Positions 7,740 to 52,167 of a stretch of DNA of 64,000 nucleotides are shown piece by piece. The position numbers and the translations under genes are program-made. Each line of letters begins with the position of its first letter. Position 1 is the stretch's first letter. The notes beneath the pieces were generated by a model. It was not told the origin of the DNA and made no database searches. It saw only the letters and a program-made list of their open reading frames with translations. The DNA is from Escherichia coli (GTDB lineage Bacteria; Pseudomonadota; Gammaproteobacteria; Enterobacterales; Enterobacteriaceae): assembly GCF_003018235.1 (NCBI RefSeq), contig NZ_CP027437.1. One strand, given 5' to 3'.

Positions 7740-9810
<2,071 letters not shown>

Positions 9811-10151
9811 TCAAAGCGATATTCAGCATTACTGGAATCTGCGAATTGTCGCCAGTTCGCTATGTTTAAGCCCCAGCCTGCTCAAAAAGAAATTAAAAAA
9901 CGAAAATACCAGCTATAGCCAGATTGTCACAGAGTGTCGTATGCGTTACGCCGTACAGATATTATTGATGGATAACAAAAATATCACTCAGGTAGCGCAA
10001 TTATGTGGCTATAGCAGCACGTCGTACTTTATCTCTGTTTTTAAGGCGTTTTACGGCCTGACACCGTTGAATTATCTCGCCAAACAGCGACAAAAAGTGA
10101 TGTGGTGAAGGGCAAAGCGGAAACAGATAAGACGGGCATAAATGAAGAAGA

Positions 10152-12573: not shown

Positions 12574-13234
12574 CTTGCACCTATCATAAAATTAAAACAA
12601 GTTGATAATAGTCAAATAACAACCAATTAAATACACAATCATAATCAGGATGATGTGCATTTATATTTTTATACACAAAATTATAGTTTGCAAATTTTAA
12701 TAAATTTCATTTAAGATTAAATTATTATATGTATATTATTTTTTATTCTAACGTATTTCAAAGTTACATTTTTCAACGCTTACTATGCTTTTTATTAACA
12801 TAAACTCACTACAACGCACCTGAAACCTCTTGCTATATATATGTCAACCGTTTGAATTTAAAATAAAAAGAGTATCATTTTTACTTGCATTTCTTATCAA
12901 GTCACATTCAACAACAGTAACAAAACATTATTAGAACCATTCAATTAACAAAAAACCAACATCCGGATTGCTTAACTTTTCTTTATTAAACGATATTGAA
13001 AATCAATTGATAAAATACATCTAAACAACTTTTTGGGGCGCAAAAGCATAACATCAAACCAACAAATAACACACCGAAAAAACTCACAATTAATAACCTA
13101 TGATATACATACTGTTTATTATGGTTGAATAAGCCACTCGATATCTGGCGTAACGGAAGTGTCTACACTGTTCAGCAGCACCCGATACTTCCATGCCTCT
13201 AGCAACAATCTTTCCTCCTCCGTTGTAATTTCCA

Positions 13235-13378
13235 GATCTACAGCATGCTGAAGTGGCGCAATATGCTCACTCTCATTTTACCCTCAAAAATCCGGTCACA
13301 TTCTGCACAGTTCAACGCATTACGTTGTAGATCGGTGTTCTGGTCATTTGTTGATACACGTACATAGCCAATAAGCAT
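13235..13378 (-). pseudogene. Truncated Gin/Pin/Cin-family serine DNA invertase (only about 30 N-terminal residues conserved, then frame decays to a stop)
   Basis: Minus-strand translation from ATG at 13378: MLIGYVRVSTNDQNTDLQRNAL… (canonical invertase N-terminus with catalytic Ser region) followed by unrelated residues and stop after 47 codons; no ORF of invertase length in 12.6-13.4 kb. Confidence 0.7.
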
Positions 13379-13439
13379 GTTAAATCCCCTTGGTAAAAGC
13401 AGGAATGATGCCATTTGCTTGTTATTTCTTCATTTTCAT

Positions 13440-13460
13440 AAACGTTGGTTTGGGAGAAGG
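13440..13460. repeat. Left inverted repeat / recombination site of invertible tail-fibre segment (gix/pix-like)
   Basis: AAACGTTGGTTTGGGAGAAGG; reverse complement partner at 15279-15300 with 15-nt perfect core TTGGTTTGGGAGAAG. Confidence 0.75.
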
Positions 13461-13926
13461 CTCTGCATTACCTGTTGGTGTGCCTGTTCCATGGCCTTCA
13501 GCCACACCGCCAACAGGCTGGCTGAAATGCAACGGTGCGGCATTTTCTGCTGAAGAATACCCGGAACTGGCAAAGGCTTATCCAACAAATAAATTACCTG
13601 ATTTACGCGGTGAGTTTATTCGTGGCTGGGATGACGGGCGCGGTATTGATGCAGGACGTGTTTTATTGAGTATTCAGGCCGGAATGCTGGAAAAGCACCG
13701 TCATCCTGTTGTCGCCAACGATGAGTATGACTCAAAAGAGGAATGGGAACTAGCGACAATCTTCAGAAGAGCATATAAGCAAGGCAGGGGGCTTGATGCT
13801 GCCGCTGCCGGAGGGAGTCTGATCCCATCACCGACACTTCATTCACGAGGGAGTATCGGTAATACTGGCGGGAGTGAAACCCGTCCACGAAATATTGCAT
13901 TTAACTATATCGTGAGGGCTGCATAA
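13441..13926 (+). CDS. Alternative tail-fibre C-terminal (variable) segment, currently in the non-expressed orientation
   Basis: Contains the conserved side-tail-fibre C-terminal motif (PWPSATPPTGWLKCNGAAF…YPELAKAYP…LPDLRGEFIRGWDDGRGID); begins exactly at the inverted repeat; the ORF-track start at 13390 is read-through. Confidence 0.7.
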   Translation, partial: NVGLGEGSALPVGVPVPWPSATPPTGWLKCNGAAFSAEEYPELAKAYPTNKLPDLRGEFIRGWDDGRGIDAGRVLLSIQAGMLEKHRHPVVANDEYDSKEEWELATIFRRAYKQGRGLDAAAAGGSLIPSPTLHSRGSIGNTGGSETRPRNIAFNYIVRAA

Positions 13927-14528
13927 TGGATAACGCCGTATTAAATAGCGAGCTTATTACCACGAAGGCGGGGAATATTACCGTCTATAACTATGATGGT
14001 GAGACGCGGGAATATATTTCTGCATCAACTGAATATCTTGCAGTGGGTGTCGGTATTCCAGCATATTCCTGTTTAGACGCTCCTGGTACATCTAAGGCTG
14101 GTTATACAATTTGCCGTTCTGTGGATTTAAAATCATGGGAATATGTGTCAGACCATCGCGGTGAAATCGTCTATAACACCGAAACGGGAGATGCCAAAGA
14201 AATCACAGCACTAGGCGACTATCCCGAAAATACAACCACTATCGCCCCGTTAACGCCATACGATAAATGGGATGGTGAAAAATGGGTGACAGATACTGAG
14301 GCACAACACGGTGCCGCAGTAGAAGCGGCAGAAGCACAGCGCCAGTCACTGATTGATGCAGCAATGGCTTCCATCAGTCTGATTCAACTGAAATTGCAGG
14401 CCGGACGTAAACCGACGCAGGCAGAAACAACCAGACTTAACGCTGTGCTGGATTACATTGACGCGGTGACGGCAACAGATACCAGCACCGCGCCGGATGT
14501 CATCTGGCCTGAACTGCCGGAGGCGTAG
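13926..14528 (+). CDS. Tail fibre assembly protein (Tfa family), partner of the alternative fibre segment
   Basis: 200-aa ORF, start overlaps fibre stop; C-terminal Tfa-type motif (…DYIDAV…TSTAPDVIWPELP). Confidence 0.75.
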   Translation: MDNAVLNSELITTKAGNITVYNYDGETREYISASTEYLAVGVGIPAYSCLDAPGTSKAGYTICRSVDLKSWEYVSDHRGEIVYNTETGDAKEITALGDYPENTTTIAPLTPYDKWDGEKWVTDTEAQHGAAVEAAEAQRQSLIDAAMASISLIQLKLQAGRKPTQAETTRLNAVLDYIDAVTATDTSTAPDVIWPELPEA

Positions 14529-14943
14529 GCCATTCAATATCTGGCGCACTGGAGGTATCAACCAGCTCCAGTGCATCCAGATAATCCAGCCACAAATTAT
14601 ATTGCGCCAGTTCCTCACCTTTCAGACGACCAATAGCGGCTTTACCGGGCCATTGTTTACTGTTCATGTATTCGTTGGCCTGGTTAATCAATAATTGCCT
14701 CTCTGATTCGGCCTGTTCAATAAGTTCCTCATGTGATGGTGGAGGTATTTCAGCCCATGTGGGAAAACCATTTTCCCCTGCAACTCGGATTTTCCCTTGT
14801 GGCGGTTCCGCCATATATTTTACAGAAATATCATCAGGAATATCTAATGCATTAGCAGGCCATGTTCCATTTACTTCATAAGTGTTTTTTAAATTAACAG
14901 CATAAAAAGCATTTTCCGAAGGGGAATAAATATATTGATTCAT
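14500..14943 (-). CDS. Tail fibre assembly protein (Tfa family), partner of the expressed fibre
   Basis: 147-aa ORF with the same C-terminal Tfa motif (…DYLDALELVDTSSAPDIEWPTPP); convergent with the other tfa. Confidence 0.75.
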   Translation of the reverse strand: MNQYIYSPSENAFYAVNLKNTYEVNGTWPANALDIPDDISVKYMAEPPQGKIRVAGENGFPTWAEIPPPSHEELIEQAESERQLLINQANEYMNSKQWPGKAAIGRLKGEELAQYNLWLDYLDALELVDTSSAPDIEWPTPPAVQAR

Positions 14944-14944
14944 A

Positions 14945-15583
14945 TTATCTTCCTATTGCGATAATCATAGTTCCATACAAACCATTTCCGGTTGATACTT
15001 TTAAGGTTACTGATGTCCTTGTTGTCGTGTACCCCATAAGTTTAAAGGTCGGAGCAGCCGTTAATGTGCCATCTGACCATAAGGCACTAACAGCCAGTGC
15101 GCCTGAAGGAAATGCAATAGGGAAATTACCTGTAGTTCCGTTAGTGTCCGCCCCATAAACATTCATCGAAAACATTTGGACAATATGACCACTTGGTAAC
15201 TGAAACCAGTTTTTGCCAGATGGAAATGCAGACATATCTGGTATCTGATTTTCCCCTGTTCCCACATTCCGTTTTGCCGCTTCTCCCAAACCAAGGTTTT
15301 CGAGAGCCGTTTTCACCGTGCCGTCCGATTTGATATCGCCAAACGGATTTTTGCGGCTTAACAGCAGCGCACGAAGCGCGGTAAGCAGCTGGTCATGCCG
15401 CCCCTTCTCCAGGCTGGCACCGGATGCCTCCACCACGCTGCAGAGTTCTTCCTGCAACATGTCAAAGTAGTCATCATCCAGATCGGTGGCAGGTGTGCCG
15501 GTCTGGGGGTTACCACGGGTAAAACCGTTCTTACCCGCGCCGAACTTATCCTTCTGCGCGGTTTTCGTGTCTATACGATGCAT
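14945..15583 (-). CDS. Tail fibre protein: constant N-terminal region (to about residue 100) fused to the currently expressed variable C-terminal segment
   Basis: 212-aa ORF directly downstream of baseplate genes; the right inverted repeat lies inside it at codons encoding [13 protein letters not shown]. Confidence 0.75.
15279..15300. repeat. Right inverted repeat / recombination site of invertible tail-fibre segment
   Basis: Reverse complement AAAACCTTGGTTTGGGAGAAGC pairs with 13440-13460. Confidence 0.75.
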
Positions 15584-15586
15584 GGA

Positions 15587-16171
15587 TTACTCCGGATATT
15601 TAAAAATTACGTAGGTATGCGAAGGGCAGAGTTTGTTAAGCACACACTCGACAACGGTGTCGCCCCAGATACGCAGTGCGGAATCACAGGGATCACCACA
15701 TGTCATCCAGGTGGTGTTGGTGGCAGCTGGCATGTTGACCTGCCAGTAATACCGCCATTCCGGCGCATTCACCGCGTCAGTACAGGCCGATGAGCAGGTG
15801 AAGGTGCTTTTGTCGTATCGCGTGATGGTGGCATCTGGTCTGCCCAGGGCAGCAAGCTGTGCAAGATAAAAATCCTCGTTGATGCCGCCCGCCAGGTTAA
15901 CCTTCGCATCCAGCCGTTGCTGACGCTGGCGAAGGGTCTGTGTCCCTGCGGGAATACATTCATCCGGCAGGCCGCACAGACGCTCCCAGCGGTTTATCAG
16001 TTCGGTGGTGGTGCGCGGATCCAGCTCCCGCATCAGGGCATCCGCACGCTGATGAACACGGGTTAATGACGGTGCTGCACCGGCAATCGCCGGATCGCTG
16101 GCTGACCACGCCGGACCGGGCGGCAACAGTGCTGACAACAGACGGATGTAATCATCGTTTGTCACGTCCAT
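15587..16171 (-). CDS. Mu gp48-like tail/baseplate protein (YmfQ-like)
   Basis: 194-aa ORF between baseplate J and tail fibre; order matches the Mu/e14 baseplate cluster. Confidence 0.65.
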
Positions 16172-38191: not shown

Positions 38192-38974
38192 TTAGGCGCA
38201 ATACAAAGGATCATTAGCAGCTCTAATACCGCCCTGAATCGCAAGCCCTGTATGGCAATTTGACATTGAGCATGATTGCCATCTGTGCAAGGGACCTCCA
38301 TTAATCGAAACTTCCAGCAGATCTTTATCTCCTTTCATCCTGACCCCTTCATACAACATATCAAGACGCTCAACAATCAATCCTGTTGGAGGTTCCATTT
38401 TTAGAACGAGGGCAAACTCTCCTGGCCCACGTCGTATTGTTATACGCGGGCCGGTACACTCCACATCCCAATTGTCTGATTTAGCTTTCCATTCATTTTC
38501 ATCTATCAGTAAAGTCTCCTTACCAATAGAATTACAGAAAATTCCTGATAAAAGCATCGGTCCATGTGGTATGGGTGAAGGTTTCACAGAAAGAATGGGT
38601 TGTTCGTTGACTACAATCAAATTTTGACAGTTATGAAACGTCACTCCTGCAAATTTTACTGTTATAGGCTCATTATGAAAATCAAACATTTCATTTGCAA
38701 AACCAGCCTGTAAGCACTTGGGATTTCTGTCAGCTATTTCCACTGTCTGTGCTGAAAGTCTACCACGAGCTCTTTTTTGATTGCATTGGGAGCAAAGAAG
38801 TGTCATTCCATTCGGATCATGTACTTTGGCATCAACGAAGTCAGGTTTAAAATGCTCATAATCATAAAATCCAAATCCACAAATTACACAGCCAAAGCCG
38901 CACCTTTGCCTTATCTGACGTTTTATTGTCTCAGGTATTCTTCTTGAGAGCCCGTGTTTATTAATATTGTCCAT
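38192..38974 (-). CDS. Hypothetical protein with N-terminal HNH/His-Me-finger nuclease motif and uncharacterised C-terminal domain (260 aa)
   Basis: CGFGCVICG…YEHFKPDF…HDPNGMTLLCSQCNQKR fits the CxxC…(D/E)H…N…CxxC(N/H) HNH pattern; AT-rich gene flanked by non-coding spacers. Confidence 0.55.
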   Translation of the reverse strand: MDNINKHGLSRRIPETIKRQIRQRCGFGCVICGFGFYDYEHFKPDFVDAKVHDPNGMTLLCSQCNQKRARGRLSAQTVEIADRNPKCLQAGFANEMFDFHNEPITVKFAGVTFHNCQNLIVVNEQPILSVKPSPIPHGPMLLSGIFCNSIGKETLLIDENEWKAKSDNWDVECTGPRITIRRGPGEFALVLKMEPPTGLIVERLDMLYEGVRMKGDKDLLEVSINGGPLHRWQSCSMSNCHTGLAIQGGIRAANDPLYCA

Positions 38975-39583: not shown

Positions 39584-41110
39584 TCAAAAATAAACCTCAC
39601 CATCAACCATATATTTGAGAGTACTTATCGCCTGCCGGGCGGATATTGTTTTCATTAAAGGATAGTGTTTAAAAACAATGCCATTCATAAAATAGATATC
39701 ACAGGTTTTATTATCTGTATTGATTATGATTTTTTCGAATGTTTTATAGGCAAGTGTACGACATAGCTCTCGCCCATTTTTACTGGTTAAGTCAATAGCA
39801 TGAAAATCACCAAGTGAGCTCACCGCTTTACTCTTCAAAGTTTTTAATGATACAGAAGCCCTTCGTAATTCCTTATCTAATACTCTGATTTTTTCTGCTA
39901 TAGCGGTAACTTCAGGCGCAACAGATAATGCAGCAATTAAATTATTAATTTTCATATGGAGCTCAATAATTCTCAACTCTAAAGTTTCATTAGCATCTTT
40001 CTTGTTTTCAACTGGTTGGATTTTACTACAATTAAAAAGCAACTCATTAATGATATTATAATCAACCAAATCTCTCTTTATTGATGGCCTGCCACATCGA
40101 TGCAGTCTTCTCATCGGACAAACATAATAGCCATGCAAACTTCCAGATACCGCATGAACAATCATGGTATTACCACAAGCCTCGCACTTCATAACTGTTC
40201 GAAGTAGATTTATCAACATAGGATTTTTGCTACTATTGCTAATACCAAAAGGTGCCAACCGAATTTCCTGCACAGCGTAAAACAAATCATCTGATATGAC
40301 TCTGGGATAATAGCCAGCGATTTCACTTATTCCTTTACCTCTTGCACGATATGAAGGTACGCATATACCTATCAGAGCTTTATTCGCTAATAATTTTTCA
40401 ATTACAGAAGGCCCCCATGCACTTTCTTTTCCTGAGAAATTCTTTACAGCATGATCATTTAAATACTTGGCTATTGCATTCAATGAGCGCCTTTCCATCC
40501 TGAGTTTAAAAATTAGCTCAATAGTTTTCACCCTGTCGGGGTCTGGAACAAAAGCCGTTCTTTTGTCATCTAAGGAGAGCCATCTCGGACAAGACGCCGT
40601 CATAATCGTACCTGATTCCAGTGCATCCTGCCGTTTTTTCTTCCATGATAATTTAACCCGACTTGACTTTATCTCGCTTTCTTCATTTGCCCTTTGTGCT
40701 ATAAGTATGGCTTTTATTAATGAATATGGCTCATTCAAAGAGTCAATATTATAGACTGTATTGTCGCAAAGAGTTATAACATCAATACCGTGATTCAAAA
40801 TCAATTTCAGACGTTCAATCGCTTCACCGACTTTTTCTCTTGAAAGTCTGTCCAGACTTTCAACTAACAATGTAGTTCCTGGCAATATATAACCATGCTC
40901 TATAGCATCTAAAAATTCCGAAAAAGCTCCTGATTGTGCATGCTTTCCTTTGAATGCACTTAATCCTAAATCTTCATATGTTATGGTATCAAGATAATAA
41001 TCACTATTTACCTTTAACCATTCAGCAATAAGTCTTCTCTGTCGGTTTAATGAGTCGCCAGACATCTGACCTGGTGATGAAAATCGCATATATGCTATGG
41101 CTTTTTTCAT
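39584..41110 (-). CDS. ybcK: Large serine recombinase (YbcK-like, 508 aa)
   Basis: N-terminal resolvase catalytic region (AIAYMRFSSPGQ…SLDRLSR) and C-terminal Cys-rich zinc ribbon; size equals DLP12 YbcK. Confidence 0.8.
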   Translation of the reverse strand: MKKAIAYMRFSSPGQMSGDSLNRQRRLIAEWLKVNSDYYLDTITYEDLGLSAFKGKHAQSGAFSEFLDAIEHGYILPGTTLLVESLDRLSREKVGEAIERLKLILNHGIDVITLCDNTVYNIDSLNEPYSLIKAILIAQRANEESEIKSSRVKLSWKKKRQDALESGTIMTASCPRWLSLDDKRTAFVPDPDRVKTIELIFKLRMERRSLNAIAKYLNDHAVKNFSGKESAWGPSVIEKLLANKALIGICVPSYRARGKGISEIAGYYPRVISDDLFYAVQEIRLAPFGISNSSKNPMLINLLRTVMKCEACGNTMIVHAVSGSLHGYYVCPMRRLHRCGRPSIKRDLVDYNIINELLFNCSKIQPVENKKDANETLELRIIELHMKINNLIAALSVAPEVTAIAEKIRVLDKELRRASVSLKTLKSKAVSSLGDFHAIDLTSKNGRELCRTLAYKTFEKIIINTDNKTCDIYFMNGIVFKHYPLMKTISARQAISTLKYMVDGEVYF

Positions 41111-41364: not shown

Positions 41365-41697
41365 TTAATGTGGTGTGCTTCGTGACAATAAATTAATAAC
41401 CAACACACCGGCACAAATCAACATCATGCCTATAATGGCTGGCAGGTCCAGCCGTTGGCCGAAAAATCCCCATGACAGTAAGCTAATCAGGACAATACCG
41501 ACTCCTGACCAGATAGCATAAGCAATCCCTGTAGGAATATAAGCCAGCGTCTGAGCTAATAACCAGAATGATGCACAATAACAAATAATTGTACCAACAG
41601 ATGGCCATAACCGTGTAAAACCTTCTGAAAACTTCATTAAGGTTGTACCAATGACCTCTGCAAGTATTGCACCACCAAGATAAATATAAGGATTCAT
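41365..41697 (-). CDS. emrE: SMR-family multidrug efflux protein EmrE
   Basis: 110-aa four-TM protein starting MNPYIYLGGAILAEVIGTTLMK; matches EmrE. Confidence 0.9.
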   Translation of the reverse strand: MNPYIYLGGAILAEVIGTTLMKFSEGFTRLWPSVGTIICYCASFWLLAQTLAYIPTGIAYAIWSGVGIVLISLLSWGFFGQRLDLPAIIGMMLICAGVLVINLLSRSTPH

Positions 41698-41764
41698 AGC
41701 ATATTCTTTCCTGTTCAAACTGGAGAGAATTGTACTACAGTTTGAACTCAACTCACCTGTTTCA

Positions 41765-50713: not shown

Positions 50714-51056
50714 GGCCTGTCAGTTTCTTAAGATATCCAGACCAACCGCCACCAACTGGATACGAACAGGCCGCCTACAGGCAACACGTAAAGATCCAAC
50801 CAAGTCAAAATCTCCTTACCTCACAACACGGCAAGCCTGCATTGCGGCGCTTCAGTCTCCGCTGCATACTGTCCAGGTGAGCGCGGGTGATGGCATAACA
50901 GAGGAAAGAAAATGTCACTCTTCCGCAGAAATGAAATATGGTATGCCTCGTATTCGCTCCCGGGCGGGAAACGAATTAAGGAATCTCTTGGCACAAAGGA
51001 CAAGCGGCAAGCTCAGGAGTTGCACGACAAGCGAAAAGCAGAACTCTGGCGAGTAG
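50685..51056 (+). CDS. xis: Putative excisionase (Xis), overlapping int start; C-terminal extent uncertain
   Basis: HTH-like N-terminus ([26 protein letters not shown]) immediately upstream of and overlapping int. Confidence 0.5.
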
Positions 51057-52075
51057 AAAAGCTAGGGGATTTACCTGATGTCACTTTTGAAGAGGCCTGC
51101 CTAAGATGGCTTGAGGAAAAAGCTGATAAAAAATCTCTCGATTCAGATAAAAGCCGGATTGAGTTCTGGCTTGAACATTTTGAGGGTATAAGGCTTAAAG
51201 ATATCTCGGAGGCAAAGATTTACTCTGCTGTAAGCAGAATGCATAACAGAAAGACGAAAGAAATATGGAAACAGAAAGTTCAGGCCGCCATCAGGAAAGG
51301 TAAAGAACCGCCTGTTTATGAACCAAAGCCAGTATCAACTCAGACAAAGGCAAAGCATCTTGCCATGATAAAGGCCATTCTCCGTGCTGCAGAACGCGAC
51401 TGGAAGTGGCTGGAAAAAGCGCCTGTCATCAAGATACCAGCGGTCAGAAACAAGCGAGTCAGATGGCTGGAAAAGGAGGAAGCAAAACGCCTTATTGATG
51501 AGTGCCCCGAACCACTGAAATCTGTCGTCAAGTTTGCGCTGGCAACTGGTCTGAGAAAGTCGAACATCATAAATCTGGAATGGCAACAAATCGACATGCA
51601 GCGACGAGTTGCCTGGGTGAATCCAGAAGAGAGCAAATCAAACCGCGCCATTGGTGTGGCGCTGAACGATACCGCCTGTAAAGTGTTGCGTGATCAAATA
51701 GGCAAGCATCACAAATGGGTGTTTGTACATACCAAGGCGGCTAAGCGAGCAGATGGAACATCAACGCCTGCGGTCAGGAAGATGCGCATCGACAGCAAGA
51801 CATCATGGCTATCAGCTTGTCGTCGTGCAGGAATTGAAGATTTCCGTTTCCATGACCTCAGACACACCTGGGCAAGCTGGCTGATTCAGTCAGGCGTCCC
51901 ATTATCAGTGCTTCAGGAAATGGGCGGATGGGAGTCCATAGAAATGGTTCGTAGGTATGCTCACCTTGCGCCTAATCATTTGACAGAGCATGCGAGGAAA
52001 ATAGACGACATTTTTGGTGATAATGTCCCAAATATGTCCCACTCTGGAATTATGGAGGATATAAAGAAGGCGTAA
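50912..52075 (+). CDS. int: Tyrosine integrase (lambda Int family; DLP12 IntD-like)
   Basis: 387-aa ORF with C-terminal catalytic signature (…[15 protein letters not shown]…VRRYAHL) adjacent to argU. Confidence 0.92.
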
Positions 52076-52090
52076 CTGATTGAATTGTAA

Positions 52091-52167
52091 TGGCGCGCCC
52101 TGCAGGATTCGAACCTGCGGCCCACGACTTAGAAGGTCGTTGCTCTATCCAACTGAGCTAAGGGCGC
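52091..52167 (-). tRNA. argU: tRNA-Arg (anticodon UCU)
   Basis: Reverse complement reads GCGCCCTTAGCTCAGTTGGATAGAGCAACGACCTTCTAAGTCGTGGGCCGCAGGTTCGAATCCTGCAGGGCGCGCCA: cloverleaf with TCT anticodon and CCA end. Confidence 0.93.

Follow-up and report, generated by a model that had tools for sequence, protein, structure and literature searches.

The tail-fibre switch described here is an invertible segment of the e14 P-segment type (Din family) in a prophage of Escherichia coli, and it was found in both orientations beside one and the same truncated invertase gene. It lies in a 64,000-nucleotide (nt) stretch of contig NZ_CP027437.1 (RefSeq assembly GCF_003018235.1), referred to below as the window, and consists of two opposed pairs of fibre-tip and Tfa chaperone genes between inverted crossover sites (Table 1). 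Only the first 35 codons remain of the adjacent gene for a Pin-type serine invertase. Since both orientations stand beside this same stub, inversion in trans is the best-supported reading: the switch is very probably an orphan that has lost its own invertase and is flipped by a Pin-family invertase encoded elsewhere in the genome. Invertible fibre segments are textbook systems; the new point is the orphan configuration, a natural switch without its own enzyme that would still flip, occurring in two prophage families, which is a modest but genuine addition.

Inverted-repeat arms were recovered by a computed repeat search at 13440-13459 and 15280-15299 (20 nt, 95% complementary, 1,820 nt apart). 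They contain a perfect 15-nt core, TTGGTTTGGGAGAAG, at 13445-13459, with its complement at 15280-15294. The two 26-bp crossover sites built around these arms are imperfect palindromes, inverted relative to each other, and have the same 2-bp core (AA/TT). The 14-mer TTCTCCCAAACCAA has exactly two occurrences in the 64 kb, one on either strand; in shuffled sequences the expectation, at one mismatch or fewer, was 0.04, and 0 of 100 shuffles reached two. The 16-nt sequence TTGGTTTGGGAGAAGG (13445-13460) is the repeat of the e14 P segment as quoted in PMC12529663. The expressed tail fibre of 212 amino acids (aa) is divided by the constant-side site into a constant part of 97 codons (15293-15583) and a variable, gp53-like tip (14945-15292). 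Inversion of 13447-15292 in silico placed the silent tip in frame behind the constant head, for a fibre of 256 aa. The Tfa protein of the silent tip is 100% identical to the copy in strain MB06231, whose locus has an intact pinE. An initial annotation, made from the letters of the sequence, had proposed a host-range inversion switch of the Mu G-segment or e14 P-segment type, with two opposed fibre-plus-Tfa pairs bracketed by a repeat and with intact crossover sites at the constant/variable junction of the fibre gene. The layout, the sites and the homology to e14 all agree with the type, and the open reading frames (ORFs), their PHROG matches, the in-frame alternative product and the position of one site inside the fibre codons agree with the arrangement. 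The 15-nt perfect core was also given correctly, and the repeat length of 21-22 bp was too long by 1-2 nt at each end.

The lesion in the invertase gene was defined by alignment of the junction to intact pinE genes (muskdeer13-4, MB06231 and K-12) and to Mu gin. The window is collinear with pinE from the ATG at 13378 through nt 107 (GAG GGT AAA ATG AG) and unrelated to it thereafter. The fusion junction lies at 13271/13272, and beyond it are the last ~150 nt of a tfa gene in another frame, in a sequence that shares 92-96% identity with the DLP12 pseudogene tfaX of K-12 and the flank on its appY side. The stub reading frame continues past the fusion to a stop at 13238, for a product of 46 aa that keeps the catalytic serine and has lost the remaining catalytic domain and the DNA-binding domain. 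With codons 1-35 as its only remainder, an intact adjacent small serine invertase (~184-193 aa, resolvase and HTH_7 domains) is absent. The alignment points to an old deletion that fused pin codon 35 to a tfa remnant, with no frameshift; the earlier view that the invertase keeps its N-terminus alone therefore stands, and the collapse of frame that it assumed is replaced by a fusion whose breakpoint recurs elsewhere. At that breakpoint no crossover-site-like sequence, the sign of an invertase-mediated deletion, was found, just 2-3 nt of possible microhomology. No NCBIfam match was obtained for a 58-aa version of the stub ORF, and a look-up of this version in public assemblies likewise returned no match. 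The exact 41-nt junction had no match in a collection of one genome per species, which probably holds a single E. coli representative, and tblastn of PinE against a phage collection added nothing.

Among loci retrieved from other assemblies (L numbers), the same stub occurs with the segment in either orientation. In the window's lineage, L013 (run SRR21083355) has the orientation of the window, with 0 mismatches in 7.2 kb. The window inverted in silico matched L016 (SRR11357309) with 1 mismatch in 10,415 nt, and L015 (GCA_025095815.1) with 2 mismatches and 1 gap in 10,771 nt. The exact predicted 256-aa product is encoded in 6 public contigs; in L016 and L015 its neighbours are, as in the window, the 46-aa stub ORF, the tfa remnant, appY and ompT. 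Flipped and window-oriented sequences exchange their half-sites precisely at the AA core. The same segment is also present, flipped and 99.5% identical, in E. coli MB06231 next to its intact pinE.

The identical breakpoint was found in E. coli strains KOr019, P4, FP4 and A34 and in no others among 5,426 complete genomes. In these four the stub ends an unrelated prophage located at yfhH-tadA, whose baseplate is of the DUF2612/Wedge1 type. This family (L004-L007 and L017-L029) also has the segment in both orientations, with exact flip pairs formed by L018 against L025, L019 and L022, and by L021 against L017; the two allele backgrounds in which these pairs occur share 93% identity. L018 and L025 agree at 100% in both flanks; the remaining comparisons within this family show 100% identity in one flank and 99.7-99.8% in that on the pin side. 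Contigs L023, L026 and L028 end 5-42 nt from a crossover site, as noted with 8 further similar contigs, and such breaks would be expected if the reads held both orientations. Genome counts by junction type (931, 24 and 8) are confounded by allele frequency, the collar-type tip being far commoner, and were used solely to establish that both junction types exist with an intact pinE. The initial annotation had considered the switch to be probably locked in its current orientation unless another invertase acts in trans. Locking is contradicted by the near-identical, stub-bearing contigs inverted exactly at the core and by the two yfhH flip pairs, and what had been added as a caveat is the reading that these sequences support best.

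Because the same breakpoint ends an unrelated prophage family at yfhH, the stub is old and has been dispersed between prophage families. Public assemblies contain the exact 46-aa stub product in 55 indexed blocks. Between the window and the yfhH-locus prophages, sequence spanning the junction is ~83% identical overall, and the two lineages differ at 7-9 of the 107 nt of the stub and at 8 of the 54 nt of the adjacent spacer. An ungapped count of differences in the tfa remnant was inflated by a 3-nt indel and was left unused. In the spacer between stub and crossover site, the polymorphisms of the two lineages match different intact-pinE alleles, so truncated and intact loci have exchanged sequence since the fusion. 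K-12 tfaX extends ~12 nt further into tfa sequence than the breakpoint in the window, so K-12 is not derived from the window's junction. Decay has gone further in some relatives: in L012 (GCA_946056985.1) everything between the replication gene and the invertible segment has been lost and the stub retained; and L037 (GCA_019372635.1) carries another truncation of the invertase, of 119 aa.

Several observations weigh against inversion in trans, or against a part played in it by the stub. No other Pin-type gene was found in the 64-kb window by tblastn with PinE, and the five truncated loci at the level of complete genomes that were looked at first (the window, KOr019, P4, FP4 and A34) are all in one orientation. 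Conservation of the stub could stem from gene conversion from intact pin genes and not from selection. Retention of an enhancer is in itself unsurprising, as it would survive a break anywhere in the last ~84% of the gene, and Fis binding is a prediction from collinearity alone. The first two of these are also what a locked relic would produce, in which the segment is frozen, the 212-aa gp53-like fibre is always made and the silent pair is decaying. An invertase reduced to 35 codons fits such a relic, as does the report that deletion of pinE in K-12 locks the e14 segment (PMC12529663). Locking had at first been suggested by the five same-orientation loci, and was overturned by the wider look-ups in assemblies. 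The near-identical contigs with the same stub in opposite orientation, the two further exact flip pairs in the yfhH lineage, and silent genes that are intact, with a silent Tfa 100% identical to a copy from an intact-pinE locus, make a relic very unlikely.

The two orientations could also have arisen with no site-specific invertase, by RecA-type recombination at the 15-20-bp repeats or by homologous import of a segment already flipped in another e14-type prophage. In favour are the clear mosaicism of fibre and Tfa modules, the match of truncated-locus spacers to different intact alleles, and the existence of flipped loci with other alleles (L011 and L012). A repeat of 15-20 bp is, however, a very poor substrate for RecA, and replacement would usually carry linked polymorphisms, whereas only 0-2 substitutions over 7-10 kb separate the members of a flip pair, and their exchange point coincides exactly with the core dinucleotide. 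With three independent exact flips, this route was judged very unlikely. Inversion by the prophage's own 508-aa large serine recombinase (39584-41110), which has in its favour that it resides in the same prophage as the switch, is highly improbable: the protein belongs to the integrase/XisF-type class and was not picked up when PinE was used in tblastn, the crossover sites are of the canonical Pin type, and the yfhH lineage flips too, with no such gene listed in the 7-10-kb stretches read there. Least probable of all is mis-assembly of the stub junction or of the flipped contigs. Repeated tfa genes in E. coli can mislead assemblers. The junction, however, is common to four finished genomes and dozens of independent assemblies, and since the 20-nt inverted repeat is shorter than usual assembly k-mers, a flip would need supporting reads.

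Flipping in trans would operate as follows. The late operon reads via ymfQ into the 97-codon constant fibre head, and recombination at the 2-bp cores of the inverted 26-bp sites joins this head to one of two tips, each with its own Tfa. The invertase gene of the prophage was destroyed long ago, by the deletion that fused codon 35 to the tfa tail. Both crossover sites persist in cis, together with a putative Fis-dependent enhancer in the first ~90 nt of the invertase gene, and inversion would continue through a Pin-family invertase from another prophage in the same genome. Gin, Cin, Pin and Hin have been known since the 1980s to cross-complement. Possible sources of such an enzyme are common: a match of at least 80% of its length to the part of pinE that is missing here was found in 2,320 of 5,426 complete E. 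coli genomes. In K-12 the e14 segment is flipped in trans by PinQ, an invertase of the Qin prophage (Kirigo et al. 2025, PMC12529663).

The predicted enhancer lies wholly inside the retained 107 nt, ~88-155 bp from the crossover core, and is conserved. The hin enhancer, by comparison, measures 65 bp and sits within the invertase gene at ~100 bp from hixL; its two Fis sites are spaced by 47 bp and enclose two AT-rich tracts, ATTTA and TAATG (PMC3798978). In its reference list the same paper credits Kahmann et al. 1985 with a stimulatory site inside the Mu invertase gene. Collinear with the hin tracts, an AT-rich centre, GATCTACAACGTAATGCG, is found at 13316-13333 (stub nt 46-63), 113-131 bp from the crossover core. 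The two candidate Fis cores are 47-49 bp apart by register, their exact 15-bp positions being uncertain. The pattern set out in PMC4784862, with boundary G/C and Y-R steps at ±(3-4), is present in the distal candidate; in the proximal candidate the boundary G/C is present and the Y-R steps are shifted. By collinearity, the stretch is a candidate Fis-dependent enhancer. A full deletion of pinE, reported to lock the e14 segment in K-12, also removes the enhancer, and stub alleles keep it and flip; together these would fit a requirement for the enhancer in cis.

A more far-reaching proposal, put forward tentatively, is that the stub serves as the working enhancer of an orphan switch, that this invertase-free design has spread in at least two unrelated prophage families, and that the choice of tip is ruled by the invertase of another prophage, for example a phage-inducible enzyme of the PinQ type. 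If so, this would be a cross-prophage regulatory dependency, and, if e14-like chimeric fibres act as reported for StfE2, it would extend to control over a receptor-masking defence. Flipping in trans would itself mean that the host range or defence state of a prophage may depend on co-resident prophages. It would agree with the recent report that the invertases of one cryptic prophage rearrange the fibre genes of another and so affect phage defence, and it would present a natural separation of the cis needs of inversion, namely sites and an enhancer-bearing stub, from the trans need. A truncated invertase beside an invertible segment should accordingly not be annotated as a dead switch.

Table 1. 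Features of the orphan tail-fibre switch and adjacent genes (window coordinates)
Feature	Position	Strand	Description
3' remnant of tail-fibre assembly gene	13119-13271	-	Fused to the invertase stub; homologue of K-12 DLP12 tfaX
Invertase stub	13272-13378	-	First 107 nt (35 codons) of a pinE-type serine invertase gene, reading 13378 to 13272
Predicted recombinational enhancer	13291-13358	-	Stub nt ~21-88; from collinearity with gin/pinE and with the hin enhancer description
Candidate Fis core	~13294-13308		GTGCAGAATGTGACC; stub nt 71-85
Candidate Fis core	~13341-13357		GTATCAACAAATGAC; stub nt 22-36
Invertase-proximal 26-bp crossover site (pix-like)	13433-13458		TTTTCATAAACG-TT-GGTTTGGGAGAA; core TT at 13445-13446
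Invertible segment	13447-15292		1,846 bp between core dinucleotides; two opposed fibre-tip/Tfa gene pairs
Silent alternative fibre tip	13459-13926	+	Tail-collar type, StfE homologue; phrog_523, E 1e-72; listed ORF from 13390
Tfa chaperone of silent tip	13926-14528	+	200 aa, TfaE homologue, intact; phrog_105, E 4e-96
Tfa chaperone of expressed tip	14500-14943	-	147 aa, TfaP-like; phrog_188, E 3e-64
Expressed tail fibre	14945-15583	-	212 aa, StfP homologue; phrog_1396 tail fibre, E 1e-72
Constant-side 26-bp crossover site	15281-15306		TTCTCCCAAACC-AA-GGTTTTCGAGAG; core AA at 15293-15294; in fibre-gene codons L-E-N-L-G-L-G-E
YmfQ / Mu gp48-type baseplate wedge gene	15587-16171	-	Directly upstream of the fibre gene; late operon reading into the switch

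Upstream of the silent tip is a short leader frame, 13390-13458, with a TTG start at 13390 where K-12 stfE and other relatives have ATG. In the inverted state this leader would be placed on the gp53-like tip, as a counterpart of the 'StfE2' chimera, which in K-12 is reported to block the adsorption of T2 (PMC12529663). Ratios of nonsynonymous to synonymous substitution rates (dN/dS) of 0.13-0.17 were obtained for the silent genes between truncated loci and were dropped as evidence for expression, because the segments recombine with intact loci and the values are not assignable to the period after truncation.

The prophage, of ~39 kb, is inserted between appY and a tRNA-Arg gene (argU), which is the DLP12 site. 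It is largely complete and lambdoid with Mu-like tail genes, encoding an integrase, an O-like replication protein, a Q-like antiterminator, terminase, portal, major head protein, tail sheath and tape measure; its baseplate is Mu-type (gp44-48/YmfQ), and the switch is the last module of the late operon. The flanks are E. coli chromosome as in the K-12 DLP12 neighbourhood, with nfrB/nfrA (99.5% identical to strain 042 and others), ybcH, envY, ompT and appY on one side and tRNA-Arg(tct) (52091-52167), fimZ and the sfm fimbrial genes on the far side. An insertion sequence of the IS21 family at 7862-9663 (istA 7862-8884, istB 8881-9663) interrupts envY, of which the C-terminal 114 codons follow at 9764-10108; in the close relatives L010, L012 and L014 envY is intact (253 aa). 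The spacer down to appY (12574-13118) and the tfa remnant together correspond to the tfaX region of K-12 DLP12 (L002, 3001-3713) at 92-96% identity, and the prophage of the window may show what the lost tail end of DLP12 was. In the early region, the large serine recombinase is encoded on the minus strand (phrog_95 integrase, E 2.5e-119, with a weak XisF match) and is flanked by ORFs of unknown function at 38192-38974 and 41365-41751; the same prophage has a tyrosine integrase at 50912-52075. The locus at 39584-41110 may represent either an inserted element or a second system of recombination.

Among known systems the e14 P segment with PinE in K-12 is the closest. The window has the same gene order as ymfQ-stfP-tfaP-tfaE-stfE-pinE, with DNA identities of 96% (ymfQ and the constant part of the fibre), 93% (5' part of stfE) and 88% (tfaE); the 15-nt crossover core is identical, and StfE- and TfaE-type genes make up one arm in both. 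The two differ in that e14 is located at icd and the prophage of the window at argU, in the StfP-side tip and chaperone, which in the window are another allele with no match in K-12 over 14668-15264, and in the invertase, a 184-aa PinE in e14 and here a 35-codon stub fused to a tfa remnant. The window thus has the sites, the layout, the homology and the two orientations of the e14 P-segment type and lacks an intact invertase next to them. With Mu G/Gin and P1 C/Cin it has in common the Sc-Sv-U / U'-S'v layout and an invertase gene that begins ~68 bp beyond one site and points away from the segment. Collinearity extends over the first ~100 nt of that gene, with 75% identity to Mu gin over 138 nt of spacer and gene start. 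In contrast to Mu and P1, the fibre of the window is 212 or 256 aa long versus ~500, its variable parts are without DNA similarity to theirs, and it has no functional invertase in cis. The Salmonella Hin/hix flagellar switch shares the 26-bp sites with a 2-bp core. Its Fis-dependent enhancer is situated at the start of the invertase gene, ~100 bp from one of the sites, and the window retains collinear sequence there, with the CTACAACGTAATG centre, as a predicted enhancer. The Hin system differs in that hin lies inside its own invertible segment and controls a promoter rather than a fibre gene. The nearest parallel for the proposed mode of action is PinQ of Qin on the e14 P segment, where the invertase of another prophage flips a fibre segment with this same repeat (PMC12529663). 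In K-12, however, the target keeps its own pinE, whereas the target in the window has none, so that action in trans would here be obligatory.

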